Both the position numbers and the translations under genes were made by a program. The notes beneath the pieces are model-generated. The model was not told where the DNA came from, did no database searches, and was given only the letters and a program-made list of their open reading frames with translations. A DNA stretch of 64,000 bases from Carpediemonas membranifera BICM (taxonomy: Eukaryota > Protista > Fornicata), in NCBI GenBank assembly GCA_019828565.1, contig JAHDYR010000003.1, positions 1 through 64,000 of the forward strand, given 5' to 3'. Below, piece after piece: positions 5,176 to 61,100 of this stretch. Numbering within the stretch: position 1 is the first letter of the stretch; every line of letters begins with the position of its first letter.

Positions 5176-5318
5176 GCATAAAAACTTTTTTTTGCAAGGC
5201 ATAGAACTCTACACTGTGAGCACTAGTGTATTAGTGCTTGCAGAAGCGGTTACTTGAGTCGATGAAGTATACGCACATGACATAATTAATTAAAACAGTT
5301 TAATATTGAGTGAGCCAC

Positions 5319-5400: not shown

Positions 5401-5416
5401 CACCCTGGACAGTATG

Positions 5417-15377: not shown

Positions 15378-15395
15378 CTCCTAGCCGCTAGACTA

Positions 15396-15432
15396 GCTAG
15401 AGTATCCTAGCATCCTAACTCATATCCAAATG
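15396..15432. repeat. 37-bp direct repeat Z (second copy 15810-15846)
   Basis: GCTAGAGTATCCTAGCATCCTAACTCATATCCAAATG twice. Confidence 0.9.
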
Positions 15433-15548
15433 AGGGGGAATAATATTTACTCGGATTTCCTGTCTCTCCGCGTAAATATTCAGCGTCTTCTTTTGTTTCC
15501 CGCGTTCCTCGCGAGACGAGGCAGGTCCGTCGTTCGGGACCCTCTGCC

Positions 15549-15810
15549 TTGGGCGTGCCCGTGTCTTCTTCGGGCATCTTTCGAATTCTGCCATATCCTG
15601 CACATCTGGTCGAATCAATCCAACGATCTGTGGTACACCAGGAAGAAGAGGAAGTACTTTATTACGACACACATGTGTCAACAAAGACCAATGAGGACCA
15701 AATCAAAATAATGAATCAGGTGCACTACACGATCAATAGTCTCCGGCCCGCGCTCCCCGCGGGACCCTCCGACCCTCAGCACCCCGGGTGCCCTGGTCGA
15801 GTGCTGCTCG
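15549..15810. repeat. Direct repeat Y (second copy 19182-19337), interrupted by a solo LTR
   Basis: Identical to the second copy once 15629-15734 is removed. Confidence 0.9.
15629..15729. mobile_element. Solo LTR, 101 bp
   Basis: TGT...ACA ends, imperfect terminal IR TGTGGTACACC/GGTGCACTACA, 5-bp TSD CGATC; empty site visible near 19257. Confidence 0.85.
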
Positions 15811-15968
15811 CTAGAGTATCCTAGCATCCTAACTCATATCCAAATGGGAAACCGACCAATCCCGTCCTCCTCAGGGAGTTAGCTGCACTATGCAAGCTTC
15901 TGTGCCAGCGGCTCCTTGCCGCCTCGGCTCACCGGACGTCGCCATGACGATCCTCGGTGCGATGGTGT

Positions 15969-16832
15969 TTAATGGGATGAGAACAGTGTCTCAGCAGTTT
16001 TTCTTAACTGCGACGGATGATTTCTGATGGCCTCGCCGATGTAGGGGCGGAGTGAGTTGCCATTGGCCCATGTGCCCAGCTGTAGCAGGGTCTCGAGGGG
16101 TGTCCCGGCGAGGGCTAACTCGGAGGCGGCCCCCTTGCGGAAGCTGTGGAGGCCAACGCGGTCGTCGTTGAACGTCCTCCGGAGCTCATCTCGCATGTAC
16201 CGCATGGAGGCCGCCTTCCGTCGGCTGATTGTACGGTCGGAGGTGATGACTCTCCAGATGCCGACATCTGGCGGCAAGCGGAGGCCGAGAACCCATCTCT
16301 TCAGCGCGAATGCGGGGTTGAAGGGACCCAGTAAGACGTTCGGCAGGGATTTTGACACCTTAGTCTGAGTCTTGGTCTGGCCGATGAGGAGTTGGACGTC
16401 TCCGTTGGCTTTGAAGACGATGTCGTGAGGAGTGAGGCGGAATATCTCTGCCACGGCTGACTGTTAGGTATGCGATCGCGGCGAACAGGGTCGCCTGGTA
16501 AGCCGAGACGCTGTCGTTCCGACGAGTGATTGCGCGCAGCATGTCCTCCTTGAGTATGGGCGCCGAGCCACCTGTCATGCCGTCCGTCGAGGCGTGGGCG
16601 GCGATGCCGCGTCGAATCTGAGAGCATTAAGGACTGGGAAGCCAGTCGGAGAACAGGGGCGCGGCTCGCTCTATCCAGTAGCCCTTGCGCTCTACGGTGG
16701 CTGGGGCGTTATGCTCTGCCTCCTCCTCGAGGAAGGCTCGGTATACTTCGGTGTCGTCTAAGTCCTGGCCTCGAAACTCTATAAAAGCGGTGATCCAGCC
16801 GGCTACTGCTCGGCGCGTCTCGTGTCTGCGCA
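15969..16832 (-). CDS. Tyrosine recombinase of YR1 (frameshifts near 16455 and 16625)
   Basis: LTVSR..EI, HSFRKGAAS, LGTW, LRPYI catalytic motifs; colinear with the YR at 35209-35940. Confidence 0.88.
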
Positions 16833-18698: not shown

Positions 18699-18727
18699 CC
18701 ACCATCGCTTTTGAGTGGAGGGAAAGG

Positions 18728-19210
18728 CTAGGACCTCGAGCGGCGGCCGTTGTGGCCGCCCTCCGGTTGAAAATTACGCCTCTTGCGCTTACCTTTCATC
18801 TTGGCGCGGGCTATGATGGCGTCGATGTCTAGCTCTGACTCAATGACGGATGCCTTGAGGGCAGCAGCTGCATAGTCGGTTGCCGCGTCATCGTAATCGT
18901 CCTTGAGGAGTAGCTTATAGCGGCCGAGGAGTCGGAGGCGAAGTGTGTTGGCATCGAGCATGTCGGTGGCGATGTCCCTTAGAAGCTCTTTGATGAATCT
19001 GGCTTCATCGCGGGGACCAAAGCGTTGCGGAAGTTCTAAATCGGCGAGCGTGTTGAGGAATGAGCGGTTTCTTGCATTGACTGGCTCGTCGTAATCGGGC
19101 CCCTGCGCGATGTTCGCTTCAACCAAAGCTAAACGGCCAGAAAGCTCGCCTAGAACCCTTAGTATCTCCTCTTGTTGCGGATTGGGCGTGCCCGTGTCTT
19201 CTTCGGGCAT
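18728..19210 (-). CDS. gag-like ORF1 of YR1
   Basis: Upstream of RT; helical with basic C-terminus; first ATG at 19210 (MPEED). Confidence 0.6.
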   Translation of the reverse strand: MPEEDTGTPNPQQEEILRVLGELSGRLALVEANIAQGPDYDEPVNARNRSFLNTLADLELPQRFGPRDEARFIKELLRDIATDMLDANTLRLRLLGRYKLLLKDDYDDAATDYAAAALKASVIESELDIDAIIARAKMKGKRKRRNFQPEGGHNGRRSRS

Positions 19211-20761
19211 CTTTCGAATTCTGCCATATCCTGCACATCTGGTCGAATCAATCCAACGATCAATAGTCTCCGGCCCGCGCTCCCCGCGGGACCCTCCGAC
19301 CCTCAGCACCCCGGGTGCCCTGGTCGAGTGCTGCTCGGCTAGCCCCCTAACTCATACTCCCAAAGGGGGGGGGGTAAAGGATTTATTCTTCTCGGGCTCC
19401 TTTAGGCCCGATGTGCCTTCGGGCATTCGAAATTCTGATGCCATAAACTGCACGTTTCCGTGCGCCCTCTCGGGCGTCTCAGCACCCCGGGTGCCAATGG
19501 GCTCGAGTGGTACTCAGCTAGCTGTCAGCGCGGCTAGCTATCCTCATGACCTTCTTTTCATTAACCAACGGGGGGCGCTTAACTTACACAATGTTAACGA
19601 GGAAGCTAGTGTATGTTAAACGTGAAGTCCTCTCCGCTTACCGAGGGAGAAGGAGTATACCAGTCGTAACTGGTACCGTGCCGTCGGATCCGGCGGATCC
19701 GAACTTTGCGCCATTCTGTCCGCATAAACTGCGTGACTCGCCTGACCGGCGAAACACCATTTGCCCGGAGTGAGGCTATCACATCGCCCTCCGCTCCGGG
19801 CCCGTTACCCGAGGTAACCTTACTGACGATGTAGCGCCAAGATGTCTGACACATCCGCACTAGCTCATCCGCTGTGCAAACCAATGGGGAGGTCTCGCCC
19901 GTCACGAGCGACTCGAGGCTATCTCCACCCGAGATTGAAAGAAAATGAAAGAGACAAAAGAATGAACATGGGCGTCCTAACATGCGGTTGTGGCTGATCT
20001 AGGCACCGCTTTGTGTGTAATCGCAGTTTCGCAGGATATGCTCAATGACGATGCGTGAATGGGGAAACTGCGGTTCTTCGCAGCAAAGGGACAAACCGAT
20101 GCGAATGTCGCAACAATAATCGTTTGCGATGGCAATTATACTAGTTCTGTACAACTTCCGCCTCTTCTGGAAGGATGGAGAACGTTTCGCTTAGCGAAAC
20201 CTTAATCTTGCCACCAACCAGTGACAGAACCATCCTAGTGGATCCTCTTGCTCTATAAAGCGACTATCTGCTGATCATCTCTAGTACCAGTCCACCAATG
20301 ATTTCAGCAAAGTGGAAACACTTCGATCATGGATGGACAAGGACCAACAGGCCTGGCCTATGTGGATAGGGCAGTGCCCCATGGAGCTCAGAAGGAGCGG
20401 CCTTGGCCTCCTGTCTGGACATTCAAGGGTTGCCATCAGGGCATACCGCTGGGCGCGAGTGGGAGCTCCACGCCCATACCAAGGAATCAAAGTGTCTTCA
20501 TGGAACGTATGTTTACAAGGAAAAGGAAAACAACCGTCGAGGGCCAGTGCTAGCACCGGCGGCTACATGGTTTTGTCAAGACCACAAGGAAGGAAGGGCA
20601 GCGCAAAAGGGAAACAGGGGCCGTCGATAGGGGCTAAAAAGGAGACTACGAACAAAGCAACAACCACTACACAGAAAGGCCCGGCTACTCAGAAAAGGGC
20701 GACGCATTTTTAGGACCGCGCCTTTTTGAAAGAATGGCCTATATAGTACGGAGCATGGACA

Positions 20762-23700
20762 ATGGGAGAAACTGGAAGGCCTGGACGGAGACCTCACCCG
20801 GATATGTACATGTGGCCCGACTTTCGGACCCAAAAATTCCGACCCAGTTTATGGACTAGGAAAAGGGGAGAAATTTTGCACTCAACAATGCAGGTAGAAA
20901 TACCGACAAGGATCAGGGATTCCACGCAGAAGCAGTGGGAGGACATCAGGGAACTACTGGACAGCTTCCTCGCTGAAAGGAACGATTCAAGGACCCTACT
21001 TCTTCGTAGAACAGGCAAGTTTACAGGAAAGTCGCTCAATGCGAACTCCAAAGGACGCAAGGAAGTAATCATGAACGCCAGACGCATCCTCTTCGCAACC
21101 GGCGTCACTGACAACAAGGACATCATCCTCAGGAACCCATGCGGCATCCACGGCCTCCGCGACCTTTTCTACATGCTCACAGAGGCGCTCAACCCCAGAG
21201 ACGAGGAAGCAAAGGACATGGCACAGGCACTGGAGCCCAAGACGCTGAAAGCGGGCTTCACTGGCATGGCAAGATGGCCATCGGAGAAGGACATCGAGAC
21301 GGCGATCCTCAAGCCGAAGGAAGATGGGCCCATCGAATGGGATGTAGACAGGGACAGCGTCAAGAAGGCCGAAGGGTCGTTCATACTGGTATCAGGGGCT
21401 CATGGAGACGAGGCCGTAGAAGGCGTGCCTTACGACAAGGTATGGGATCCGGCAAACCAAGGCCCGGTCACCAGAGTGGCCTACGAGCAAGAGGACGGCA
21501 AGTACAGGGTCATCCTAGAGCTAAGCGACACGTCAGCATGGTCCATCAGCCGCTTCATGGAGGAGGCTAGGGACATCCTCAGGCTTCAGGCACCGGAGGC
21601 CCCGGCCATATGGCAGGCAGCATGGAACAAGTCAGGGATCTACCTGAAGGGCAGAACCAATATCCTGGGCGAAGGGGAGGAGACCCCCCTTAGCAACGAG
21701 CCGCTGTTCCGGAAGGTGAGGCTGGAAGTGCTCAAGGCCACCTCGGTCCGCAGCAATAGGGACGAACATGCCGATCTGGACAGGTCGTCCGCTAGCACGG
21801 TCATCGACGGAGACGAGGAGCAACATGTCAAGGACAAGGAGGAACGACGCCAGCAGGCCACCATGCCCGGCAGGAGAAGCCTCGACGACAGCCTCCTGGA
21901 AGTGAACAAGGACATGGTCGGGGCCAACCAAGGCAAGATCGACCAGGACGAGGAGGTCGACTCAAACAAGGACAGCAGTCAGCCGCCGAGGATGCCTGGA
22001 AAGGACAAGGAGAAACGGCTGGTGATCGGAGCCATCGACTTCGAGTGCGCAGACCCTGGCGTCAAGAAGGCAGGGATCCCTGCCATCCCGGTTGAGGGCG
22101 GGATCGTACTCTTTGACCTCAGCACTGGGGACATTCTTGGACATGGGCATGGCCTGTACTACCAGGACATACCGGCAGCAAGCATGGACCAAGCGAGGTA
22201 CACGGCATGGGCAGTGACGGGGCTGCCGCCGGCCACCTTCGTGGAGGTCGGGACGGGGCGGCCGCCGATCGAGTATGAGAAGCACATACATACTTTCAGG
22301 GACTGGGCCAACCGCCTGGCGGCTCAGCTGGCAAGGATCGAAAGGTCGGAGGGCTGGAAGATAATCATGTATGCAAAGGGGGTGGAGATGGAAAGCTTCC
22401 TCCTCACGAACCCCACAAATGGACTGGAGCAAGGAACCAGGGAATTCTTCCAAGCTAGGCTGGTGGACGAGAAGAAGCTACCAGAGATCCTGGAGAACAA
22501 CGGCAAGGAGGAGGCTGGCCAAAACCTCAGGGACAACCTCGACAAGGCCAACTACCTGGAAGCAGTAACAACATGGTCAAATGGATGGCAGAACAGGAGC
22601 GAGCCCAAGGGAGTCTGTCCGTACCACAGACACACCGCGGGTTGCTACCACTGTGGGTTGGCGGATACAGTAGTCTTCACAGCCAGGATCAGGGCCCTAT
22701 GCAAGGAGAGGATGAGCACCCCAGACGTCTACCACTACATGGGTAAGGCACTCGACAAGACCATGGAAGCAGTCGGGAATGCGGAGCCGGGCATGGATAT
22801 CATGGGAGGCCCGGAATTCGCGACAAGGAGGGACACCTTTGAGATCTTCGGCACGTACCCGATCGGGGACGCAAGGGACGTCAGCAGGGAAGTCGGCGAC
22901 AGGATCCTCGTAGTCCCGGACAACGGACACCGCTTCGGCATCGGCTTCGGGTTCGGGGAGGTTCTGTTGGGCATGAAGGGCATCTTACTGGCCCCCCTCA
23001 CAATCATGGACAACGAAGGAGTGCTGGAGAGAAGCCCGCTATGGACCATCATGGAAAGAGCCATGGCTAACCAGCTCCGCATGGTACGCGTCAGGAAGGG
23101 CCTAGGGGCAGCAAGGGAGGAGGACATCATAACCATGGCCATGCTATACGAGTGGTGGCCCTCGAAGGAGGCTACGGCTCATCAAGGAGTCTGGGGCTGC
23201 GACGACCTAGCAGAGAGCCTCAGGGACTATGAGAAGGTCATAGTCAACGTCAAGGCCCCCAGGAACAGGGGTAGGATCACCCTAGGGGCGAGCTTCATCC
23301 CGAGAGACTGGGGCATGGTCAGGGTCAGCGAGGCTGGGACCATCCTAAGCCGTATGCGCAAGGAAGGGGCCAGACTAGTCTCGGCAGCTATCCCGGACGA
23401 GCCCAGAGCCAACACAGTCAATGTCCCAGGCATCACGTATGTCCCCACCATCGACGGAAAGTCCGAACAGCCATACCAAAGTAGGTTCTTCGACAACGGC
23501 CTGGAGGAAAAGGCGAGGCGGATTAGCACCAGGATGGTGGGCAGGCACTTCGGCCAGGACGCGGATCAAGGACATCACGACCAGCATGGAGACAGGGAAG
23601 AGGACAGAAGGGTAGGACACGGAGCCGGCGGTAGAGCTGGTGTCAGAGCTGACGACAGAACCGGCGACAGAGCTGGTAACATGAACAGGACCTCGGATCG

Positions 23701-24265
23701 TAACCACGGAGGAGACGACAGGGAGAGACAGGACAACACGGGAACGCAGATGAGAGGCTCGTTCAGCGGGAACACCTGGGCCGGTAGAGGCTCAGAGGGA
23801 GGCATGGACAACAGCAAGGATCACTCTTCCTCCACGACGCTCAAGCGCAAGGAGGGCAGCACGAGTAGGATCATGGACTCGGACAGCGGAAAGAGAAGCA
23901 GGCACGAAGAGGACATGGACTGGGAGTCTGGAAGCAGACAGGCAACCGGCATGGACTCGGAGAAGCTGCGGCTCCGAAAGCAGTTGGCAGAGGCGCAACA
24001 AGAGATCTCAGCGCTCAAGGCTGCCCGACTCATGCAAGAGCAAGGCCACGGAAGGTTGGTGCTCTCCGGCGTCGCGACTAAGCCCAGCAAGGAGAAGCCC
24101 ACGATCCCCCGGCACAAGCACAAGAAGGCTAAGAAGGCCAAGCAGATCTCACCCATGGACCTGATGACCCAGTTCATCACGGTAATGCAGAGTCTACAAG
24201 GACAGCAAGTGAGTCAGGCCGAGGACAGCTGCAGCGGCAGTGGGGAGTCCACGGAGGAGGAGTAA
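20762..24265 (+). CDS. LINE ORF1 (1167 aa) with Maelstrom-like DEDDh / E-C-H-C nuclease domain and C-terminal coiled coil
   Basis: IDFE...PVE...CPYH-x8-C with HCGLAD; may extend upstream into ORF 20312-20713 by frameshift. Confidence 0.8.
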   Translation: MGETGRPGRRPHPDMYMWPDFRTQKFRPSLWTRKRGEILHSTMQVEIPTRIRDSTQKQWEDIRELLDSFLAERNDSRTLLLRRTGKFTGKSLNANSKGRKEVIMNARRILFATGVTDNKDIILRNPCGIHGLRDLFYMLTEALNPRDEEAKDMAQALEPKTLKAGFTGMARWPSEKDIETAILKPKEDGPIEWDVDRDSVKKAEGSFILVSGAHGDEAVEGVPYDKVWDPANQGPVTRVAYEQEDGKYRVILELSDTSAWSISRFMEEARDILRLQAPEAPAIWQAAWNKSGIYLKGRTNILGEGEETPLSNEPLFRKVRLEVLKATSVRSNRDEHADLDRSSASTVIDGDEEQHVKDKEERRQQATMPGRRSLDDSLLEVNKDMVGANQGKIDQDEEVDSNKDSSQPPRMPGKDKEKRLVIGAIDFECADPGVKKAGIPAIPVEGGIVLFDLSTGDILGHGHGLYYQDIPAASMDQARYTAWAVTGLPPATFVEVGTGRPPIEYEKHIHTFRDWANRLAAQLARIERSEGWKIIMYAKGVEMESFLLTNPTNGLEQGTREFFQARLVDEKKLPEILENNGKEEAGQNLRDNLDKANYLEAVTTWSNGWQNRSEPKGVCPYHRHTAGCYHCGLADTVVFTARIRALCKERMSTPDVYHYMGKALDKTMEAVGNAEPGMDIMGGPEFATRRDTFEIFGTYPIGDARDVSREVGDRILVVPDNGHRFGIGFGFGEVLLGMKGILLAPLTIMDNEGVLERSPLWTIMERAMANQLRMVRVRKGLGAAREEDIITMAMLYEWWPSKEATAHQGVWGCDDLAESLRDYEKVIVNVKAPRNRGRITLGASFIPRDWGMVRVSEAGTILSRMRKEGARLVSAAIPDEPRANTVNVPGITYVPTIDGKSEQPYQSRFFDNGLEEKARRISTRMVGRHFGQDADQGHHDQHGDREEDRRVGHGAGGRAGVRADDRTGDRAGNMNRTSDRNHGGDDRERQDNTGTQMRGSFSGNTWAGRGSEGGMDNSKDHSSSTTLKRKEGSTSRIMDSDSGKRSRHEEDMDWESGSRQATGMDSEKLRLRKQLAEAQQEISALKAARLMQEQGHGRLVLSGVATKPSKEKPTIPRHKHKKAKKAKQISPMDLMTQFITVMQSLQGQQVSQAEDSCSGSGESTEEE

Positions 24266-25239
24266 GGACATGGTAAAGCAGTATTCTTTCAAGGAACAAG
24301 CAACATTTTCTTTATAATTCACAAGCCCTGGCTCCCACCCAGGGCCCGGCATTAGCTGAAATGCACTGCCGGTAGGCTGTAGCGGCAGCCAAAGGGGGGG
24401 TCACGTCATATCGTCCCCCTCCTAAGTACCCTGCCCGAAGAATGGAAGGTCACCAGGTGGTAACAAGGTGTAGTCCGTTAGGGACAAGAAAGCTTTACAG
24501 GGAAAAGAGACGACACCAAATGTGTCGACAGAAACCTGAAGACGATGTAAATAATACAACTATGTAAATATTGGGTAAGACCCACGACACCGCCCCTCCA
24601 TGGACCCCAAAGGGGCCATGGCCTCAGGCGTATGCCACTCGAACGAATGTGCGATGAGGGACTTGACCAGTCCCGAGACCTCCGATGCCACTCATTGGTC
24701 TACGAGACTCTGTACCATGGCAGGGTACAGGGTGAATGCCTTGTTCAAGTCGGGAGCCAGAATTGGCGGGGTGAATCTGAAAGATTCGGAAAATATCTGC
24801 GGATCTCAAAATCCTATCGTGGTACCACTTGTTAGCGCGCTGTGTAATTAGAATGATCTTACGTGAGGCATTCCGCCCCTCCACGGTCGTAAAACGGCCG
24901 TTTGAATATTGATTAGATCAAATGAGCGCCTAAAACTGCTCACTGTGATGATCTTTGTGTTTCTCTTGGTATGTACTTCACGTCGCCGTCCTTATTACAT
25001 AGAGATCGAAAAACGTCATTAGAAGCCTCAATTCGGCTTCGTTCGCGAGTTCTCGCGTTTTTTGCTCTCGACGGTGCGACGTTCTCTCTCGCGGCTGCAA
25101 AAGGCCGCGTTCATCCTTAATAACATCAATCGGGCTTGAATTAGCCGTAAAACAGTGTCTTTCAAGTTCCATTGAGGTTGGTTGCTACTTCTTTCGAGTT
25201 GTTGTTTTCTCAGTGAAAACGGGAAGTGACGAACGAGCA

Positions 25240-26484
25240 ATGTCCGACGTACGTGAGCAGATTACGCAGATGCTGGCGCTATTTGATGAGGAGAAAGCCC
25301 GAAAGGCCTTCAAACGCTTCTTGAACCGCTATCTCGATCGTGCCCGTTTTTTCAACTCAGCCAGCGACTACCACGCTTTGTTCAGCGCACCTGCTCCTAC
25401 AAACGTGACATCTATCCGGGACACCTCTACTGAGAGCGTTACGAGTGCTCCGGTCACTTCTTGTGTGCGTTCGCCGACGCCGGGCGGTGACGAAAGCCCG
25501 GAGGAGGCTGAGACGGTGAGTGGTGATGCTGGCTCTCCACGTGAGAACCGTGGTGACTCGTGCGAGGCCGAGACCGCTCGTAGCGATGATGAATCCCGGC
25601 CAACGGGTCACGGCGACTCGGGGTCGGGTGAGGAAACCGAGGTCTCGCCGCTCTTCTCTCTGGAGGAGATGATCACCGCTGTTGCCGCAGAGGGCGTGAG
25701 TTACATCACTCTAGACATGTCTGGTACCTTGCGGGCGCTCCGCGCCGGGATGCTCAACTCATATGGGCATCTCGCCGCAACGGAGAACTCTTCTTCCGTT
25801 GCGCGTGACATCTGTCGCGATGGTCTCGTGTTGCTGGCGCTATCGCGCGAGTACCACACTCGGGCTATGTGTGGTCGGCCTGGCGATCCCACCGATCAGG
25901 ATCTGGTGGCTTTGCACCTCCGCCGCCTCGACGCGACCTCGCGTACGCTCTGTCATCAGGGTTTGCGCGAGCGTATTCAGCTTCTCTCGGGGCGTGGTTA
26001 CACCGTCATGACCCCTCATCTGCGTCGCGCCATAATGTTAGGTAATGACCCAGACCTGTATGACATGATGGTCGTGGGCCACGCGCAGGGCATCCTAGAC
26101 GCTGCTGACGTGCGAGAGTTCAGCCGCCAATACATTGAAGCAATCCGGACCCCCACTGGTTTCGGTCATGTGCGCCACTCTTTGATGGACAACTTCCTGT
26201 TCGATGTCCCCAGCAATGACGTCCTGCCCGTCGCGCTCGATCATAACGAGCCACGTCGTGTGTATGTGCTTGAGGCAATCGTTGGCCACCATCTGCATGA
26301 GAATTCCCTGCGTCTGCTCGTGCACTATGCTCGACGCGAGTACAGCTCGATTATCCTGGCAACCGAGGCAATCCGTGATAGTCAGGCTGGGGTCAAGTTC
26401 TTTGCTGCTCATCCCGAGCTAGTTCGCTATTGTACCCGGTCTGAGGACGCGAACGGTGCTCTCAGCGGGGGTGTTTTGGAGTGA
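25240..26484 (+). CDS. Antisense accessory ORF of element A with degenerate C-terminal chromodomain
   Basis: About 414 aa, convergent with pol and not overlapping it; YVLEAIVGHH...LRLLVHY. Confidence 0.7.
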   Translation: MSDVREQITQMLALFDEEKARKAFKRFLNRYLDRARFFNSASDYHALFSAPAPTNVTSIRDTSTESVTSAPVTSCVRSPTPGGDESPEEAETVSGDAGSPRENRGDSCEAETARSDDESRPTGHGDSGSGEETEVSPLFSLEEMITAVAAEGVSYITLDMSGTLRALRAGMLNSYGHLAATENSSSVARDICRDGLVLLALSREYHTRAMCGRPGDPTDQDLVALHLRRLDATSRTLCHQGLRERIQLLSGRGYTVMTPHLRRAIMLGNDPDLYDMMVVGHAQGILDAADVREFSRQYIEAIRTPTGFGHVRHSLMDNFLFDVPSNDVLPVALDHNEPRRVYVLEAIVGHHLHENSLRLLVHYARREYSSIILATEAIRDSQAGVKFFAAHPELVRYCTRSEDANGALSGGVLE

Positions 26485-26517
26485 GATAAAGGTTTGGATT
26501 GAGTAGCTGCTGAAGGT

Positions 26518-29500
26518 TTACAGACCGGCTCGCTTGGCCTCGTCTGACTTCAGGAATATGTCTAGCGCCTCTAGGTCCTTGACTGACGAATAGTCTTGCC
26601 ACGTGGCCTCTTCGTCTTCGCACCCAGCCCAATGGACGAGGTATTCCCGCTTGGACATCGGGCCTCGACCTCGAGATCGACTGATTCGCTCAACTTCCCA
26701 CTCGTCGTCAGCCGTGGCTGCGAGTGCTTTGATCTGATCTTCTGTCAGCCTGCCGGGATTGAACTTCCGAACTCTCGATGCGTCTACCGTGATCGCTTTC
26801 GAGTTGTCCTTCTCAGCTAGGTCTAAAACCTTATACGCGACAACGACACCGTGTTGTTTCACTCCGGCGAGCCTTCGCATTGGCCCTCTCCATCCAGGTG
26901 ACAACTTGTTCGGTGGTCTAGAGGGGTACTTGACTAGGACGAACCTGCTAATAATCTCATTCCTCGAGGCAGTAGCCTTTGCGAGGGCGTCCTCTCTCAT
27001 CGCCTGGACTCGGCTGCTGGCGAGTTGGACAGCCGCTGCGGCCGCTTCCCTGTGAGACTCACTCGCGCTCGCTGTACTAGAATCAGTCACATACACGTTC
27101 TGTGGTATTCTCAGGTCGTACCCGAGAACTATCTCGGCTGGTGACAGGCGTGTAGACGTGCGCGGGGATGAATTAACGATGAACTGGGCGACAGGTAGAT
27201 TCTCGATCCAGGTTGACCCTCTGAGCTGAAACTTACGCGCCTTGAGGATGCGTAATACTTGCTGGTTGGCGCGCTCTACCATCCCATTGGATTGCGGGTG
27301 GTGAGCCGTGGTAATATGTATCTTGAACCCCATCTCATCTGCGATGCGCTTGAAGAGTTGGTTCTTGAACTCTGGTCCTCCGTCGGATTGGAGAACCTCA
27401 GGGCACCCGAAACGCAATATCCAGTTGTTGACCAGGGCGTCCGCTGCTGCCGCGCCGGTGGTACTCGAAGATGCGACTAGCTCAGTCCACCGACTGCACA
27501 TGTCGATCATGACTGTGATGTAAGCCTTGCCGTCGACGGAGGGGAAAGGCCCCATCGTGTCAACTGCCACCCTACGGAACGGGCGATCTACGGCTGTGTG
27601 CAATCCTGACGGGCTGTCAACCGGAGGGCGTCTAATCACCTGGCACACCGGGCAGTTTTCGATGACCTTGCTGACAGTCTCACGTGATACTGACTTGCCT
27701 TGGTCCTTGAGTCGTTCAGTAACTACACGTCGGGAGAGGTGGGCCCCGGCGGTGAGGTGTTCTGCTTCAACGTCATCTTCTGATGCGGACTGCATAACGT
27801 ACACTCGCGATAAGCCGTCTGCCCCACCGTTATCAAGGCCAGCGACGTGCTTGACGTCGAAGTCCATGTCGGACATAGCCTCAGCCCATCTGCGGACCTT
27901 GGCGTTAGTCGACTTGTACATGTAAATCAGGTTGCGATGGTCCGTGAGAAGGGTGAACTTTCCCCAGGAGAGGTACTTGTTCCATCGCTTAATGGCGGCG
28001 ACGATGGCGAATGCCTCCTTCTCTCCGACCGACCATCGCGATTGCACTTGGTCAAAGGCCTTGCTCATAAAGCACACGGGTTGGCCTTCCTGCAATAGCA
28101 CAGCGCCGTAGCCTACTCCTGACGCGTCGGTCATGATGGTGTGTTCCTTGGACGCATCGAAGATGGCGAGTACTTCTGCTTGGGCGAGGAGTGTCTTGAC
28201 TTTGCGTAGGGCTTGCTCTTGCTCGTCGCCACCCAGCGGGATCTTGGAGGCCATCGCTTGAGTTAAGGGGTGTACTACTTCTGCGAAACCAGGGACATGA
28301 TCCCGGAAATAGTTAAGAAATCCGACGAGCGCTTGCATTCCCTTGACCGACTTAGGCATTTCGAGATCCAGGATGTCTTGAATGCGGTCCGCTGCGATGC
28401 GTTGACAGCCATGGGATATGACCCTGCCCAGGAACTCGACCTCGGCCCTCGAAAACTGGCACTTGTCACGGTTGAGTTGTAACTTGATCTGTCTAGTACG
28501 CTGCAGCACGCTCTCCAGGTTCTTGAGGTAATCCTCCTCGTTTTCCCCGAAGACAATGATATCGTCGATATAGATATAACAGGCGTGACCAACCAGTTCG
28601 GCGAAAGCCGACTCCATGGCACGCTGAAAGTGAGCTCCTGCGTTCCTTAGCCCGAAGGGCATCCTAGTGTATTGATATTGACCTAGAATGGTGGTGAACG
28701 CAGTGTACTTGCGGCAGCGTTTGGTCAGTTCGACCTGGTGATAACCCGACGACAGGTCTAGTGTGGCGAAGATCTTCTTGTTGGGTAGTTGGGCGATCAC
28801 CTCGTCGATCATTGGGATCGGGTAGTCGAAAGTGGGGGTGATCTCGTTGATCTGCCGGAAATCCACGACGAAGCGCGACTTCCCGCCCTTCTTCGGCACC
28901 GTCATGGCCGGGGATGCGTACGGTGAGTTGCTTCTCTCGATAAACCCCTTCAAGGACAGCTCGTCGATGTGCTCCCGTATTATGTCGACCTTGGCTGGTG
29001 GGACGAAGTATGGTCTGGCGTTGACCACTCGGTCCTCGCGTAGGATGAGGTCATACGGCTCGAGGCGGCTGGGTTCGCTACGGTCCTCGAACACGTCGCT
29101 ATAACGTCTGATGAGCTCGGCCTGCCGGTCGATGCTGGTCTGCGACAAAGAAAACAATGGTGCCTGATACTTGTACACGTCCGGAATCTCGATCTCGTCA
29201 TCATCTTGCTCGTCGGTGTAGGCTTGGGGAAGGATTCCCAGTGCTACCATGTCTGGATATCCGATAATCATGTCGAACTCAGTGTCAAGTAGCAGCATAC
29301 GTGGCTTGTAGGAGCACGCCTTGGGTGTAAACGCTGACGCTAGCAGTCTTACGTCGCCTTCAACAGCGCCTTGCGCGTGAAGAATACCCTTGTTGGCGGT
29401 ACGGATCGGAATAACCTCGGAGCTAACTTTTGTCAGCTTGGACGCCCACGTGCTCTTAATGATCGTGACTCCGGCACCTGAATCAAGTAGAGCAGTGAGG

Positions 29501-30468
29501 TTGTGACCATTAATCTGGACTTTGATCAAGGGAACAGATGGCTTAGTCTCGGTCTCGCCCTTAGTCTTTGACGGTTCGCCCTCGGCCGGTGACTCCTTGG
29601 AACTTAAAACACACACGCACTTGGAGGATTTACAGTAATCCTCCAGGTGGCCGACACGACCACACTTCTTACATGTGTGCTTGGGCTTCTTACACTTGAA
29701 CACCGAGTGACCCTTGCCACCGCAGTTATAGCAGGTGTAGTTAGAGTAGTCCTTTGCCGGCTTCTCCTTCTTGATTGCCTTGTGGCCCTTGTTGGTTTCA
29801 GCCGACCGGTTATCGGACGAGGGCTTCTTCGGGATCACAGACGAGTCGTGTCTGCGGTCATGGCGGGACGTGTAGGGTTGACGAGAGGGAGCGTCTTCGA
29901 AAGCGCTTAGTAGATCCCGTGACTCTTGGACTTCACGTGCTAGGGCTAGGACGGCGGGCATAGCCTTTTCCAGAGGCTGGTCCTCGATGAGCTCTTGGAT
30001 GCGGTACATGGCCTTGGGGTTGCTCTTAAAGGCACGCGTATACGCCTCCTTGAGGTTGTCCTCGTTGAGGGACTTCCCATCGAACAGGGACAAGAGGAGA
30101 GTGAACTTCCGATTGACGCGTGCGACCTGTACCGTGTCGAAGCTGTTGGCTCTTAGACGGAACAGCTGGAGGCGTGAGGTCTTGGTTCTGGGTTGCAGGG
30201 CTTGTCCGAGCCGCTTGAGAGTTCTCTGATCCTTCAGATCGCGGATGTTCTTCCTTGAGGCTACTAGGGGAGTGTGATCGTCGTCTTCGTCCTGCGTAGT
30301 GGATAGGATCGTGGCAATGAGGTCTTGTACCGAGCTATCAATCAAGTCTGAGATATCCCGATGGCCTCCGTAAGCGCGATAGTCGCGGAAGGCCTCGGCG
30401 AAAGTGATGAGAGCCTCAACTGACGGAACCGTTAGTAGAGGAGGTATAAGGCGTTTCTTATCGTTCAT
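26518..30468 (-). CDS. gag-pol of A: two CCHC knuckles, protease, RT, RNase H, integrase, chromodomain
   Basis: LLDSGAG, YIDD, TDAS, DTMGP..SDGG..VER, WEVERI...YLVHWAG; uninterrupted 1316 aa. Confidence 0.97.
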   Translation of the reverse strand: MNDKKRLIPPLLTVPSVEALITFAEAFRDYRAYGGHRDISDLIDSSVQDLIATILSTTQDEDDDHTPLVASRKNIRDLKDQRTLKRLGQALQPRTKTSRLQLFRLRANSFDTVQVARVNRKFTLLLSLFDGKSLNEDNLKEAYTRAFKSNPKAMYRIQELIEDQPLEKAMPAVLALAREVQESRDLLSAFEDAPSRQPYTSRHDRRHDSSVIPKKPSSDNRSAETNKGHKAIKKEKPAKDYSNYTCYNCGGKGHSVFKCKKPKHTCKKCGRVGHLEDYCKSSKCVCVLSSKESPAEGEPSKTKGETETKPSVPLIKVQINGHNLTALLDSGAGVTIIKSTWASKLTKVSSEVIPIRTANKGILHAQGAVEGDVRLLASAFTPKACSYKPRMLLLDTEFDMIIGYPDMVALGILPQAYTDEQDDDEIEIPDVYKYQAPLFSLSQTSIDRQAELIRRYSDVFEDRSEPSRLEPYDLILREDRVVNARPYFVPPAKVDIIREHIDELSLKGFIERSNSPYASPAMTVPKKGGKSRFVVDFRQINEITPTFDYPIPMIDEVIAQLPNKKIFATLDLSSGYHQVELTKRCRKYTAFTTILGQYQYTRMPFGLRNAGAHFQRAMESAFAELVGHACYIYIDDIIVFGENEEDYLKNLESVLQRTRQIKLQLNRDKCQFSRAEVEFLGRVISHGCQRIAADRIQDILDLEMPKSVKGMQALVGFLNYFRDHVPGFAEVVHPLTQAMASKIPLGGDEQEQALRKVKTLLAQAEVLAIFDASKEHTIMTDASGVGYGAVLLQEGQPVCFMSKAFDQVQSRWSVGEKEAFAIVAAIKRWNKYLSWGKFTLLTDHRNLIYMYKSTNAKVRRWAEAMSDMDFDVKHVAGLDNGGADGLSRVYVMQSASEDDVEAEHLTAGAHLSRRVVTERLKDQGKSVSRETVSKVIENCPVCQVIRRPPVDSPSGLHTAVDRPFRRVAVDTMGPFPSVDGKAYITVMIDMCSRWTELVASSSTTGAAAADALVNNWILRFGCPEVLQSDGGPEFKNQLFKRIADEMGFKIHITTAHHPQSNGMVERANQQVLRILKARKFQLRGSTWIENLPVAQFIVNSSPRTSTRLSPAEIVLGYDLRIPQNVYVTDSSTASASESHREAAAAAVQLASSRVQAMREDALAKATASRNEIISRFVLVKYPSRPPNKLSPGWRGPMRRLAGVKQHGVVVAYKVLDLAEKDNSKAITVDASRVRKFNPGRLTEDQIKALAATADDEWEVERISRSRGRGPMSKREYLVHWAGCEDEEATWQDYSSVKDLEALDIFLKSDEAKRAGL

Positions 30469-30740
30469 GGCTTGAATTTCTAGAAATGTAGTCCGTTAGG
30501 GACAAGAAAGCTTTACAGGGAAAAGAGACGACACCAAATGTGTCGACAGAAACCTGAAGACGATGTAAATAATACAACTATGTAAATATTGGGTAAGACC
30601 CACGACAAAGGTTGGCCTGACAAGGGTCACCGAGACCGGCATCTAGGCCCCTTGTCAGGACAAGGATAGCAGGAGAGGAGCGGGAAGCTGGGGCTCCCAA
30701 ATTCTGGGAATTCGCAGGATAAGGAAACAGGACAAAGGCA

Positions 30741-33700
30741 ATGGTAACCTACAAGATACTTAGTCTGAACACAGAGGGACACATAGGAAGAGGAAAGGAC
30801 TTCACGGCGTCTATGGCAACGGCGATTCAGCTAAGGTTGAAGGACATAGAGGCAGTACTCATACAAGAGACATGGAGAACGGCGAATACGAGGGTTCATT
30901 GCTTCATGGACCTTGACTACGCACTAGCAGGGAGGGAGACGGAAGAGGACCTGGTCTTAGCCAACGAAAAACGAAAGGCGGATGTCAAAAGTCAGCACCG
31001 CATCAACCGACAACTAGGCATAGCAGGCAATGACGAACCTGCGCCAAGATGGAAGGGAACAAGGGAAGGCATCGGCACGATAGTGAGCCCACACGCAACT
31101 GCAAAGTGGGACATCGGCATATCGGACAGCCTATCGGGAAGAGTGCAAGCCAGCATAATGAGAACCGGCAGGGACATACTAGTCATCAACGTGTATGGCC
31201 CTCCATCCGGCCACAGCAAGCAGGAGAAGGATGGATTCAGGGACACTATACAGAAGATCATGGACATGAAAGGGAGCATGGAGGCCATAATTATGGGAGA
31301 CTGGAACATCGACCCAGGCCAGATGGAAAGATCCACCCGGTGGAAGGATATGATGGAGAAGCACAGGCTCAAAGCCATCATACCCAAGTCTGGGACGCTC
31401 ACATCAGGAACATCAACCCCGGACTTTGCAGTGACAACACCAGGAATCCAGGGGGCGGAGATTGAGGTGGTAGAGTCTCAGAAGGTCGGGGTATGGGGCT
31501 CAGCACACAATGGAATCACACTAGCATGGAAGGAACAACGGTACTATGGCAGAAGTGAGCGAGACGTGGCTCTGGCCATACCCGAGGTGCACACCTGGCC
31601 CATGAAAAAGAAGGAGGGGCCAGTCACAGTCTCAAAGCTGAACAGGATCAAGAGCTCGGACCAATGGGAAGAGACTATAAGAGCATGCATGGGCGACCCA
31701 GTGAACAACAGGGGAGCAAAGGCAAGGGACAAAGTGTTCGGGAACGGAGTGTGGAGCGAACTCCAGCGAACCCCATGGACAGAAATAGGCAACAGGACCA
31801 GGAAGGAAAGGATGAAAGAGGAGCTGGAGAAATACTGGGGAGAGCGCAGGGCCAAATGGGTGGCCGACCTCAGCAGAAGTGCAAAGGGGGTATAGGGCCT
31901 CAAGGGCCTCAGTGGAAGCTGCCATCAGAAGGTGGTGGTGTGTTAACCAATACAAGGGAATGCCGGAGAGCCTCCTCAAGGACGGAGTGATAACCACGGA
32001 CAAGGCGGCCATCAGCGAGATCCTCTTGCAACAGTATGCTAGAGTCAGCAGAGGCAGGGAACCCACCTGGAAGACATGGAGGGGCAGGGACGGAAATGAG
32101 TTCAAGGAAAGCGAGGTCAAAGCCGCAATCAAAAGGATCAGGAGGGACACCGCACCAGGGCCTGACCTCACATCTGGAGACATGCTGAGAGAGCTGGATG
32201 AGAAAGGCCTTAGGGAAGTGACGAGGCTCATCAACAGGGTCTACAGGGAGGGCGACGTACCCAAAGCATGGAAGTATGCCACAGTGTCGGCCATACACAA
32301 GACAGGGAAGCCAAGGGTCAAGCCGGAATCATATAGACCAATATCCTTGACACCACTGCTATACAGGGTCTATGGTAGATTGCTCAAGATACGTCTGGAA
32401 GCAGCAACGAAAAGGTTCATACCAAGAGAACAGGCTGGTTTCCAGTCAGACAGGGACGTCATCCAGCAGATACAGTACATTGTGCAGCGGCACCAGGAGG
32501 GGTGAGACCACGTCAATCTTTCTGGACATCGAGAAGGCATATGACACGGTACCAAGGGACATTCTCATGGATAAGCTACAGGGTATGGGGGTGGAGGAGC
32601 ACTTGATCAGGGCAATTCAAGGCACAATAAAGGAAACCTGGATATCAGTCAAGGGGGCAAAGGCATGGGAAAGAACCAACAGGGGAGTTAAGCAAGGGTG
32701 CGTCCTGGCACCGACATTGTTTGTGCTGTTCATGGCTAACTGGCCCCACCTGGCCAGAAAGAAAATCAAGGGAGAACGGTACGACATCAGAGAACCGCCA
32801 AGGACCACGAGCCACCTCAGCGACCGACTACCGGCAGCACTTACCATGTTTGTGGATGACACTGCGGTCACAGGGAGCAAACCGGAGCATAGCCAGATGG
32901 TCGCCAACATAATGGTAGACATAATCAAAGAGCATGAAATGAGGGTGAACGCCCAGAAGAATGTAATGATTAGCGTGGACAGAACAGCCCTAGTCAGGAT
33001 CGAGGGGGTAACACTACTGCCAGAGAAGGAGGCGAGATACCTGGGATTATGGATCGCAAGTGGGAAGGACCCTATGTCGGCCTGCATAAGGCGGAAACAG
33101 GAGCAGAGCGAAAGGTACAAGAGACTGGTGAGATGGGCAGGGTGGACCAGGGCAAACATGCCAGCACTAGCAAGCAGGCTACTACTGGAAATATATATAT
33201 GGCCCAGGATCCTCTTCGGAGTCGAGGTGTGGGGGAACGCACCGGGAGGTAGAAGGATCTGGAATGACTGGCAGGGAATCATGGCAGGAACAGGACCGGG
33301 AGGGGGCGCAGCCATGAGGCTGATGAATGGATGGGTGGACCTCCAGGCACACATGGAATGGCTGGCAGTCAAAAGGATAGTCAACTACAGGGACCAGGAT
33401 ATACCAGTCAGAAACAGAGAATGGGGGCGAGGCACGGTTATGTGGGAAGCTAGGGAGAGAGTGCAGCATCTACTGGAGGGCACCAGAGAGGGAGCCCCTA
33501 AACCAGCGCTACTGGATTATGGCATGGAAACGATCAGGAGGGGGTGGATGAAGCGGTGCAAAAGCCGTACGGCACTAGGACTAATGGAAATCATGGGGAC
33601 AAGGAAATTAAGCAAGTGTCTGCAAGGTAAGCCTACGGTAGACCGAAAGGCTGGGAAGGGGCAAAGCAGGGCGGAATGGAAGAGAATTGTATCCATTGCA

Positions 33701-34180
33701 GCCAATGTCAGCCCATCCCCATCGTCGGCAGAGAGAGGGGAGGGCCCTATGAGAGCCATCACAGAGCTGGCCCAAGGCGCTGACCTGAAGAGAGAAATTA
33801 GCAGACTATGCCCCCTATGCTCGGAGGAGTCGGAGGTGAGCCTGTTCTACAGGATCATTAGGGAAAAGCCAGGACCAGCAAGGAAGCAGGAAATGATCAG
33901 GGAGTGGGCAGAGGGCCAGAGGCTAGGATCGGCAGCGCACATAATCTGTGAATGCCCGGCAGTAGACAGGGGAGATGCTTGGACAAACCTGTGGACAGCA
34001 GCGAAGCACAAAACTAAGGACTTGGAAGTAAGGCAGGGCCCCCAGGGCGAATGGTACCAGGAAAGACCCATCCTAGAATTGCAGCAACTAATAATATGGG
34101 GCTCGGAGGACATTTGGGAAGGCCTCACGGCAGGACTACGGGAACTGGCAAAGGTTTACAACAGCTTCAAGGTGGAATAG
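30741..34180 (+). CDS. LINE ORF2: AP endonuclease + RT + C-terminal Zn motif (frameshifts near 31890 and 32500)
   Basis: SLNTEG, IQET, NVYGP, MGDWN, SAHN; APGPD, YRPISL, QAGF, LDIEKAYD, QGCVLAP, FVDD, YLG; CPLC...HIICEC. Confidence 0.92.
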
Positions 34181-35208
34181 AAGCATGTCATGAACCCCTG
34201 ACTCCAGGACCGGGAAGGGATGGACAAGGAATCAGCCATGGACCACCCTCGCTGGGTGCCAAGCTCCTGGGATCAGTGAGGAAAGGCCCCACGTATCCCG
34301 GTGGCCAGGAACCAAAGCAAGGGAAGGAACGACTGCAAGGGAAGAACAGGGAAGGACAGACCAGAAATAAGAAAGAAAGGACATGCCACAAGGACAGAGC
34401 AAGGATAAGGTCAAGGAAATCCATATTCATATGGTTGCACCACTCGTTGGGACCCCAAGGAAACTGCAGGGACTGGCCACGGGGGTCGGAGGGGCACAGG
34501 TGCCCCTGCCGTCCTTGTTAAACGACATGGGAAACCAAGGACATGTAGTGCAAGCGAAATGTTGTGAGGGGTAACAGGACAACCAGGCCTAGTGCCTGGG
34601 GGTACACCACCCATGCCCTGACCCACGCCACCTAACCGGGGTAGACAGTATGGACTTAGCCACTTTCCCCGCCTTCGGGTAGGCTTCCTAACAGAGTCGA
34701 GGGGGCATGGAATTGGGGAACCGGACAGAAGAGAGGGTGCCGTGGCTGAACGGCTCTACAAGGACTGCAGGGAAGCAAGGAGTGTCATAGTCAAGGTCCT
34801 GCAGGACGATCCTGCCTGTCAATGCCCCGAGGACAGACCCCCAGGCTCCCCGGATAGTTGCCGGACTTTCAGGGAGACAGGAAAGCATATTTGCACGGAG
34901 ATGGCCGCAGGGCCTCTGGGGCGATTGGAATCGGCTTTCCGCGGAGACTGTAGCACCGAAAGCCCAAGGCAAACGCTGCTGACCAGTTTGCCACGGGAAA
35001 TAGGCAGTACCCCGGGGCACTCAGCTCCAAGACAACGGGAAACAAGCTCAGTCCGGGGTCAGAATCCAAGCACCATAAATTTCTTTCTTTCTTTCTTTCA
35101 TCTCTAGTACCGAGACTGGCATCAGCCTCGGACAACTAGCCCTTCCTTGAGGGGATGACGGGGTTCCCGTACCCGTCGTGGCTTCTAATGCCTTTTTTCA
35201 TGGGAGCT

Positions 35209-58112: not shown

Positions 58113-61100
58113 ATGATACAAGCTTCAATTCTCACGCAAAAGCAGATCATAGAGCTGTGCGAAGCTCTCCGATCAGCGCCATTTCCACAGAGAAAATCAT
58201 ACTTATACTTCAAGAACGTTACCGGCCCCTCCAAAGCAGTTGCAAAGCATCTAATCAACAACCTTTATGTGATAGGAGAACCCATAATCGTCGAGCCCTT
58301 CCAAACCTTCCAGTCCGATTCTCCCAAAGTGCGCAAAACCATCTCCGTCGCGAAAGGCTTGCCCCGCAGGCATCTCATAGCAACTTGTCAGCGCATTGCA
58401 ACTAGTTTTCAACTGTCCATAACTGATGGTCCTCTCCGCGCCTTCCCGTGCACCTTCATCTGCTCGTATCCGCGGTTGCAACATGTATGGCAGTACAAGC
58501 AGGCTTCCGCAAGACCACTGGTATTCCCACTGTCACAACGACCAACTGGACCCGCTTCGTCAACTGGATCGATGGAGCCAAGCCAAACAATCACCCACAG
58601 CAGCCCCCGAGGGTCCCCGCCACGTTCACGGACCCATGGACATGGGACGCGGCCGTCAGTCAAGCCCCAGGACAGCGTGCACCCATTGGCCCTACCATCG
58701 CTCAGAACAGCCGCCCCGGCCCGCTCATATCCAGCTCAGGTCTGCATCTCACTCAGCTATTGGATCTTAGCGTAATTCACATACTATATGGCATCTCCCC
58801 AGCGCTATCATCGCCCGATCTCACCGCCAAATACATGGCTTGGGGTGGTGCCCCCGATACACCTGTGCGCAAGGCCACCAGAAAGGCTGAACCTGTCAAC
58901 GATAGCCTCCTCCTAGCCTGTAAGAGGGAACGTAAGGACCAAGAGAAGCCCACGGAGAACGAGCATAGCTCAAGCGAGTCTTCAGATGTAGAGTTGTGCA
59001 GCCCCATTCAGTTCTCTCCGTCACATCAGCTAACCGATATTCAAGGGCGTATCACAATCGCCATCAACCACCTCAAAGAGCACGACGAAAATGATTCACC
59101 CATGGCGCCAGCATGTGGGCCCCCGTCCCCCTTTGGACCCTTCCTCGAGATCCCGACCCATGCAGACGGGAATTGTGGTCTTCACGCAATGGCTGCTGCA
59201 ATGAAGTTGCAGCTCACGATCACTCGGCCCCAGGCTCTCAGGGCCATCCGAGACGCCCTATCCGCGGAAACGCTCCAGCCATCACCGAGGGTCCGAGGTG
59301 CTGTGGCTAACCTGCGAGTCCCCACATCGTCATTCCGCAACTCCTTCCTCTCTTTCGATACACTTGCCATTATTTCCAAGGCTCTAGGAGTGCAAACCCT
59401 TATCATCTCCGAGATCACCCCTCTTTCGGTCACATGCTACATTTTGGAAGCATCCACGATCGCATCGGTTTCTCTTCCGCTCCCAGCTGCTCTCAGCCTC
59501 GCTCAATGTGGCCTGATATTGCTCCATCATAGCGTAGACCACTTCAAAGCCCTCATTCTTCCTCATGCGAGCAAGCAAGATTTCCACGGGGGCATCTTCC
59601 CTTCCCTCCATCAGTGCGCCGTGGCCAAGGAGGTCCACGAGGGTGTTGGCATTCCCTCGCACAAGCGCACTGGCTCGACGAACAACCAGGGGAGCATGCC
59701 CCTGTCCCACATCATCGTCATAGACTTTGAGGCGATGGGATATGCAGTGGACGACAGTCACCCTGGTGCCCGGGTATGCTACCCAGTGGAAGCAGGCGTA
59801 ACCCTGCTATATAGTACCACAGAACCGGGCACAGACATCCCCATGTGGGAAGTCGGAGGCATCCACTGGGGACCTCTCGCAACGGATTTCCCTGCGGCTC
59901 TCATGCGCTCAGCTCTCGTACAGTCATGCAAAATACACGGGTGCCCTCCAATGACCTTCAAGATTCATCCTGAATCGCGAGGTATAGACATCGTCTTCCC
60001 GTCGCCCAGACAGTGGCTCCACCAACTGGCTGAGATCATGAAACAACTCCCAGGGTGCATCCTGATCGCCAAGGACCCTAGGATGGAAAACACCATCATT
60101 CAATCTCAGGCTGATGCGGCAGATCGGGAGACACTGGGACTGGTCAGAGACATAGCCGACCTGGAGTCGATCGACCGTCAGCTCTTCGCCGGCATTTTCT
60201 CATACGTCAGCACTGACCTCTTTGCCAAGAGAATGGACACAGCCCAAGCGCTAACGTGGGTTAAAGCCCCATGTCCCTTCCATGCCCACTCGGACCCAGG
60301 CTACCACTGCGCGCTAGCAGACACCATAGCGTTTGCGGCTGTTATCAAAACTTTCTCATGTCTAAGCAGAAGGCGCCATGCTATTGCAAGCTCGGACCAA
60401 GACATCACGGACTGGTGGGCAAATGAGCTGGACGGGCTCATTCTTAATTGGACAACAGAACTGATGGACCTCGCCCCAGAATTCCTAACCTCTCTACAGG
60501 TGCCCCCACTCACTTCACTACATGACACCTTCGCCCGCTTCTATATAGTCCCGCGCAACGGATACTCTTACCCCTCTGGCAAGAACACATACGAGGTGAT
60601 GACTCGACCTAAGTTCCGGTCACAACGACGCATCAAGGTGACTGGAAGTGGTTCGATCCACATGCAGCACTCATAGACACAGCAACCCGGAGGGGTTCTC
60701 ACCCCCCTGCCACCCTCGAGGAGACATTCACCGCGCCCATCAGCGTACAAGGTGGCGACACCTCCTTTGGAAACCTCTTAACGGCTGAAGAGGCATACTG
60801 GACATCTCCGCCGTCCACTCAACTCCCACGATCAGTAGAGGAGCTTAGAACGATGAACGCTCCCCCCGCAAACAACACAGGCAACAACATAGTCAAGTCC
60901 TACAAGGCCCCTCGCTTCTGGTTCCTAGTTCCAAGAGACGGCAATGTCCCCCGCCTTCGCAAAGTAAGATCCCGCATGTCGGTGCAGTAGTAGGTGCTGT
61001 CAAGTCCAGACATCAGCATCCCCACCATCAGTGCCATCCTCAACAAGTTTAGCTGGAGAATTGCAAGCCAGTCGCACCTGGCATGCTGCCCTGCTCTCCA

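Follow-up and report, generated by a model that had tools for sequence, protein, structure and literature searches.

A LINE of Carpediemonas membranifera whose ORF1 includes a predicted Maelstrom-like DEDDh exonuclease

Why should a retrotransposon encode a homologue of Maelstrom (MAEL), a conserved anti-transposon factor? The question is raised by a long interspersed nuclear element (LINE) in the first 64,000 nucleotides of contig JAHDYR010000003.1 of Carpediemonas membranifera BICM (the window hereafter), a stretch that is a nested transposon cluster. An earlier note, made from the letters of the sequence, had claimed that the first open reading frame (ORF1) of this LINE encodes a catalytically complete nuclease resembling both Maelstrom and the arenavirus nucleoprotein (NP). 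We are next to certain that ORF1 belongs to the LINE, and its central domain very probably has a MAEL-related DEDDh fold, as judged from sequence profiles and a predicted model. The role that we propose for it, the suppression of silencing, is more tentative.

The 14-bp target-site duplication brackets both ORF1 and a second frame, ORF2, and its 3' copy abuts a (TTTC)n tail. Between 19600-20762 and 34180-35300 no match is longer than this duplication, with about 0.005 matches of the kind expected if composition is uniform; since the untranslated regions (UTRs) also share one 13-mer (20331-20343 in the 5' UTR, 34218-34230 in the 3' UTR), the argument rests on the position of the duplication against the tail and not on its length alone. 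The element has no long terminal repeats (LTRs) of its own, has a target-site duplication and a 3' simple-repeat tail, and ends in a tandem repeat instead of poly(A). No reading frame crosses the junction of the empty site rebuilt from both flanks. ORF2 starts with an APE endonuclease domain (PF14529, 30.4 bits at a cut-off of 27.4), which is followed by a reverse transcriptase (RT; PF00078, E 2.4e-21); in a PDB search with the RT, 7 of the 8 rows were R2, L1 ORF2 or "RNA-directed DNA polymerase", R2 and L1 ORF2 being the best. By its APE domain, RT, duplication and tail, the element is an APE-type non-LTR retrotransposon, that is, a LINE. ORF1 is separated from ORF2 by a 6.1-kb Gypsy-type element; with this insert subtracted, the inter-ORF spacer is about 332 nt long.

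The same arrangement was met outside the window. A scan with a distant relative of ORF1 (P0010, 36% identical in the nuclease domain) gave two loci, L001 and L002, on contigs from a different source, in each of which ORF1 is followed, after about 360-370 nt, by an APE start that matches that of the window (E 6e-11 and 3e-10). The order ORF1-then-APE is thus seen in both of the fetched loci, whose contigs stop within APE, before the RT. At least 11 C. membranifera gene models on several contigs hold parts of the ORF1 or second-ORF families, and one of them matches part of the window ORF1 at 97% identity. That ORF1 might be a host gene caught up by accident was rejected, because ORF1 is multi-copy and stands in the same gene order in L001 and L002. 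Duplication, tail and gene order thus confirm that ORF1 lies inside the duplication and is part of the LINE, as the earlier note had it. Some points weigh on the other side: the LINE context is established for the window copy, L001, L002 and, from a gene model, P0004 only; ORF1 of L002 is frameshifted; and ORF2 of the window copy is broken into three frames (near 31890 and 32500). A contig of run X1 carries a small insertion difference at one of these breaks, so that decay and sequencing error are both possible. Other X1 contigs match ORF1, ORF2 and the 3' UTR, one of them covering 20288-20637 with 6 differences. The LINE flanks and the Gypsy insert are without X1 cover, an absence that carries no weight, because no X1 contig bridges the LINE parts, and that was not counted.

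ORF1 itself matches no Pfam family at E<=1. It has no RRM by Pfam, and a CCHC knuckle pattern is missing from all 11 ORF1 sequences; its C-terminal part likely contains a coiled coil and a basic patch, both judged by eye. The kinship of the central domain was revealed by profiles. A profile of three element domains, run against 1.84 billion proteins, returned 16 matches, of which 14 are element-type and two are outsiders, P0019 (Rhizamoeba saxonica) and P0020, both passing the Pfam Maelstrom model (69.1 and 46 bits, cut-off 22). A wider profile that included these two outsiders yielded two further MAELs. Comparison of an element-only with a MAEL-only profile gave a probability of 99.0 (E 6e-18); a MAEL-only hidden Markov model (HMM) scored 41.9 bits on the window ORF1, compared with at most 6.4 bits for 2800 shuffles, while the element HMM recovers three of the four MAELs. 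When the MAEL-only alignment was searched against PDB, only Maelstrom was found below E 1 (4ybg, 9nhc and 5af0; 3 of 4 rows). The element domains and the MAELs have motifs in common along the whole domain, including an identical C-x2-H-x8-C-x3-D spacing. Against this stands the failure of the element domains to match Pfam Maelstrom (PF13017; 0/3 domains and 0/12 element-type proteins), and therefore we class the domain as a derived MAEL-like branch, not as a PF13017 member or orthologue. Direct searches of Pfam, PHROGs and PDB sequences with the element domains returned nothing relevant, and pattern scans for relatives found none among 67 stretches in metagenome contigs and 75 in viral contigs.

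The domain model was built from an 18-row alignment and reached a pLDDT of 86.7 (the single-sequence fold reached only 33); as 4 of the 18 input rows are MAELs, it may lean toward MAEL. Maelstrom came top in three structure searches (Foldseek; VIA-align, Z 13.5; a second VIA-align search, Z 13.4, 12.6 and 12.5), all MAEL entries returned by the PDB searches being metazoan forms. DinG (Z 12.5) and 3'hExo (Z 12.2) lie within the tie margin, which tells against a reading from the fold, and it is therefore the sequence evidence that singles out MAEL. The HHpred- and Foldseek-type check proposed in the earlier note thus bore out a MAEL-related nuclease with a predicted DnaQ-H/DEDDh fold and E-C-H-C residues, with the reservation that the structural top match is tied with other DEDDh enzymes. 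The likeness to arenavirus NP held less well: the Lassa and LCMV proteins score Z 10.2, below the 12.5-13.4 of MAEL, and NP is not among the rows listed from the other structure searches, that of a viral fold library included. With no PDB sequence match to NP either, an NP ancestry of the domain was rejected.

The motifs pointed out in the earlier note are present: IDFE at aa 425-428 (nt 22034), PVE at aa 443-445 (nt 22088), and C619-x2-H622-x8-C631 and H630-C-x-L-x-D635 from nt 22616 on. The predicted catalytic residues are D426, E428, E544, H630 and D635, and the predicted zinc site consists of E445, C619, H622 and C631. Conservation was counted over 14 element rows (P0001, P0008 and P0021 being near-copies), for each site over the rows that cover it. 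E544 is kept in 14/14, C619, H622, C631 and D635 in 13/13, H630 in 12/13, E428 in 10/11, D426 in 9/10 and E445 in 8/10. P0012 and P0014 have K at E445 in the 18-row alignment and E in the domain alignment. All nine of these residues, including the Glu at Exo II, are common to all four retrieved protist MAELs. Of the EHHCHC signature (PMC2628886), five of six residues are present by our own mapping; Thr486 occupies the place of the second His, which four element relatives keep. The nuclease domain is the best-conserved stretch of ORF1 among distant relatives: in P0010, 81/219 positions are conserved in the domain compared with 52/234 in the N-terminal part. From these residues we predict, with fair confidence, that the domain is an active, Mg-dependent 3'-5' exoribonuclease. 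The prediction is weakened by the Exo II acid, for which the earlier note had named no residue: it is Glu544 (in A-K-G-x-x-M-E), placed by alignment and not by coordinates, which makes the catalytic set D-E-E-D-h instead of D-E-D-D-h. Two relatives also depart from the pattern, P0005 with a Tyr at the first acid and P0013 with a Leu at the catalytic His. "Catalytically complete" is therefore to be read as a statement about sequence, with a Glu at Exo II.

Among known proteins, the protist MAELs resemble the element domain most in their DEDDh-type catalytic set and E-C-H-C site. The Entamoeba MAEL (EhMael) is described as an active Mg/Mn-dependent exoribonuclease (PMC4408791); TbRIF4 is reported to prefer duplex RNA, to attack either strand in vitro and to be needed for RNA interference (RNAi) (PMC3359990), and it is tied to the MAEL family through the citation there of the MAEL screen of PMC2628886. 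EhMael and RIF4 are likened to the element domain by description, the sequences compared being those of four other protist MAELs. The protist MAELs are cellular silencing genes, whereas the element domain lies inside an ORF1-type protein of 1100-1250 aa and misses the Pfam model. The metazoan Maelstroms (Bombyx 5af0/9nhc, Drosophila 4ybg) align over 185-193 residues (Z 12.5-13.5, root-mean-square deviation 3.5-3.9), and the C-x2-H-x8-C spacing of the element equals that of C290/H293/C302 (PMC4408791); unlike the element domain, with which they share 11-13% identity, they have an HMG box and lack the DEDD residues. The exonuclease (ExoN) of arenavirus NP (Lassa 3r3l, LCMV 4o6h) offers the parallel of an RNA coat protein with an ECHC nuclease directed against host sensing, but it is more distant (152 residues aligned, ranks 21-22, no sequence match). 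The zinc ligands of arenavirus NP have a longer spacing. In the account of PMC7968707, ExoN has a DEDDh fold and an ECHC zinc site and suppresses innate signalling.

Captured nucleases are not new to mobile elements. In bdelloid rotifers, the LTR elements Juno and Vesta and the Athena/Terminon elements carry DEDDy ORFs with a DEED motif (PMC5408684), and these are likewise retroelement-borne exonucleases of the DEDD family; two of these ORFs, as the authors noted, have a C-H-C motif resembling that of Maelstrom (PMC5408684). By description, however, the rotifer ORFs belong to the DEDDy/RNase D class and are separate accessory ORFs of LTR and Penelope-like elements, while the element domain is of the DEDDh/MAEL class and sits inside ORF1 of an APE-RT LINE. 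An adintovirus/Polinton gene labelled "MAEL" (PMC8502044, Supplementary Fig. S2) would be a further MAEL-like gene borne by a mobile element of eukaryotes; it belongs to a DNA element, and the comparison is by label, not by sequence, as the name appears on a map and is absent from the main text. LINE proteins are also known to have taken up other enzyme domains, such as the ORF1 esterase of CR1, RTEX and ZfL2 (cited in PMC5408684) and viral helicases, for which weak silencing-suppressor activity and a counter-silencing use were put forward (PMC6338049). These are of another enzyme class, whereas the donor of the element domain looks like a host silencing factor.

We found no LINE described as carrying a MAEL or DEDDh domain in the literature searched, Repbase and most subscription papers lying outside that search. 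In the accessible text of the Carpediemonas genome paper "transpos" does not occur (PMC8516963), nor do exonucleases come up in that of a 2026 preprint on methyltransferases of retrotransposons (10.64898/2026.05.21.726589). The arrangement, undescribed as far as the earlier note knew, accordingly keeps its novelty for LINEs, but not as a retroelement exonuclease or a mobile "MAEL" in general, both being already in print. It adds a LINE ORF1 type, not found in print, whose core is a homologue of a conserved anti-transposon factor. Should the enzyme degrade small interfering RNA (siRNA) duplexes, it would be a direct case of a retrotransposon turning a host silencing protein on the host; should it process the RNA of its own element, it would point to a job for active MAELs outside silencing and to a step of LINE replication that is not yet known. 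In both cases, a small and well-predicted MAEL-like domain, with its catalytic residues intact by sequence, is at hand for assay and structure determination.

The domain was more likely captured from a protist host than Maelstrom derived from a retrotransposon. In a tree of 13 of the 18 rows (without four short fragments and the near-duplicate P0021, and with rows whose context is not known taken to be "LINE"), one branch (100/99) separates nine element-type rows from four cellular MAELs, the tree being unrooted and without outgroup. Cellular MAELs span animals, amoebae (Entamoeba) and trypanosomatids, as reported in PMC2628886, and members of the element-type family turned up in Carpediemonas and in a few other records only. 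The wide spread of cellular MAELs and the narrow range of the element family in the searches make host capture the simpler reading. The link to the origin of Maelstrom suggested by the earlier note found no support in an unrooted tree with four MAELs and a narrow element family, and a retrotransposon origin of Maelstrom was rejected on these grounds.

We propose that the nuclease domain, likely captured from a protist host, was built into ORF1 of an APE-RT LINE. Other LINE ORF1 proteins multimerise and coat element RNA, and the ORF1 protein may do likewise, through its C-terminal coiled coil. The coat-borne nuclease would then chew antisense strands and siRNA duplexes back from their free 3' ends; by analogy, the nuclease would do what RIF4 does, but uncoupled from Argonaute and turned against silencing. 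We put the probability that anti-silencing, the clearing of double-stranded RNA and siRNA duplexes aimed at the element, is its main role at roughly 0.45. The fuller proposition, that a protist LINE clade captured a host RNAi exonuclease of the RIF4/Maelstrom type and placed it in its RNA coat protein as a silencing suppressor, in at least two LINE families, is offered only as a conjecture; if true, it would be the retrotransposon counterpart of arenavirus NP and a hint of repeated recruitment or shuttling of MAEL by mobile elements. Two facts speak against suppression: cellular MAELs help silencing instead of opposing it, and newly sequenced diplomonads, relatives of the host, are reported to be without Dicer and Argonaute (PMC11437800).

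The absence of Dicer and Argonaute from some related diplomonads favours a nuclease that serves the replication of the element itself, either by trimming read-through transcripts to the (TTTC)n end or by clearing away RNA or 3' flaps in the course of target-primed reverse transcription. The tail is tandem and not poly(A), Pfam detects no RNase H domain in any of the three pieces of ORF2, the structural neighbours include 3'-end trimmers (3'hExo/ERI1 and RNase T), and the domain is kept across families that are only 26-50% alike, in agreement with a core role; this function has also been put forward for the rotifer DEDDy ORFs (PMC5408684). A function in replication, the closest rival of suppression, is somewhat less probable than it, given that the closest kin of the domain are small-RNA pathway factors and not general trimmers, and that most LINEs, to our knowledge, transpose without such a nuclease domain. 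That ORF1 has neither RRM nor CCHC knuckle would suit another use, in which the domain replaces these as an RNA-binding or packaging module, in the manner of the non-cutting metazoan MAELs; the Bombyx protein binds single-stranded RNA and is described as inactive (PMC4408791). The catalytic acids and His, however, which metazoan MAELs have lost, are kept across distant families, and other parts of ORF1 (aa 43-335, aa 651-940 and the basic tail) could bind RNA, so we consider a packaging module improbable.

It is more improbable still that the enzyme promotes silencing as RIF4 does, curbing its own element or competitors or serving the host. RIF4 is reported to turn duplex siRNA into the active single strand, and its loss to raise repeat transcripts (PMC3359990), and the window is dense in other retroelements; self-limiting elements, on the other hand, are expected to be out-competed, as argued in PMC5408684, and a region for binding Argonaute was not identified in the protein, no test having been aimed at one. 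The smallest chance is left for a generic viral or prokaryotic DEDDh exonuclease whose likeness to Maelstrom is convergent. Its case consists of the language-model neighbours, which are viral and prokaryotic exonucleases (Rv2179c-like and RNase T-like, no MAEL cluster being listed), of a viral fold library in which DEDDh enzymes of phages and giant viruses match at E values down to 2.6e-6, and of the missing Pfam Maelstrom match. Convergence hardly accounts for an unbiased profile whose only outside matches are MAELs, nor for motifs and zinc-ligand spacing that agree along the whole domain.

A second candidate family lies toward the far end of the window, where another frame encodes a MAEL-like domain 25% identical to that of ORF1 (E 4e-13). 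This frame agrees with gene model P0004 in 457 of 480 residues (95%), and P0004 also holds an APE domain; since the near-identical predicted gene model continues into APE, the frame suggests a second LINE family, for which no APE match was found in the 64-kb window. A further OTU-like frame lies at 61287-62084, and 58062-61990 probably makes up the 5' part of a different LINE family. For 59120-59599 and 61401-61901 the OTU assignment, based on a motif and on a match of E 1.6, is unproven. The second family may be interrupted near 62000 by an LTR-like stretch that is 74% similar to the LTR region 24494-24602.

Table 1. Positions in the window of the LINE, its nested insert and the second MAEL-like frame
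Feature	Positions	Strand	Basis or remark
Target-site duplication, 14 bp, 5' copy	20275..20288	.	sequence repeat
LINE 5' UTR, 473 nt	20289..20761	+	between duplication and ORF1
ORF1, 1167 aa, standard code	20762..24265	+	open reading frame
ORF1 layout: N-terminal domain (aa 43-335), acidic linker, MAEL-like nuclease, middle domain (aa 651-940), R/D/G-rich tail
MAEL-like DEDDh exonuclease domain (predicted), aa 412-650	21995..22711	+	motifs, profiles, predicted model
Inter-ORF spacer, left part	24266..24468	+	ends at Gypsy insert
Nested Gypsy/chromovirus-type LTR element, foreign to the LINE	24469..30607	-	121-bp LTRs, 4-bp duplication, 1316-aa gag-pol
Inter-ORF spacer, right part	30612..30740	+	3' of Gypsy insert
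ORF2: APE endonuclease, non-LTR RT, C-terminal C-x2-C...H-x4-C motif (by eye)	30741..34180	+	Pfam, PDB matches
LINE 3' UTR	34181..35097	+	(TTTC)n tail at 35080-35097
Target-site duplication, 14 bp, 3' copy	35098..35111	.	sequence repeat
Second MAEL-like domain (~59690-60388), behind an OTU-like motif	frame 58427..60676	+	likely second LINE family

The spacers of L001 (5229-5620) and L002 (4631-5000) are strongly alike and have predicted hairpins, in which 2 of 32 pairs are compensatory. Both of these spacers and that of the window (24263-24468) have a pyrimidine-rich run and, shortly downstream of the stop codon of ORF1, the word GGTAAAG, which are possibly a signal for ORF2 expression. Protein P0006, which bears the source name "Splicing factor U2AF", corresponds to the C-terminal part of the ORF1 family, and its name is likely a misannotation arising from the R/D-rich tail.

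The rest of the window holds other elements. A frame of 414 aa (25240-26484, +) without Pfam match runs antisense within the Gypsy/chromovirus element, close to its 3' LTR, and a frame of 296 aa (62906-63796, +), also without Pfam match, seems to be of similar make-up; both are possible accessory genes of LTR elements, and the C-terminal half of P0016 resembles the former by eye. Upstream of the LINE, 5294-14778 is a head-to-tail array of a near-identical 4.02-kb unit with an RT of non-LTR type, a C-terminal Cys/His motif and, by eye, a likely restriction-like endonuclease, possibly a site-specific retrotransposon; inverted repeats lie at 5041-5175 and 5319-5400. A DIRS-like element follows at 15222-19537, with RT/RNase H, a recombinase-like frame (15969-16463), split repeats and a 692-aa frame that overlaps the RT frame and is read from the same strand as it. 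To the right of the LINE (35209-36024) there is a second frame resembling a tyrosine recombinase, and 36000-57000 is occupied by several more LTR retrotransposons, whose repeats are paired and whose gag-pol frames are frameshifted.

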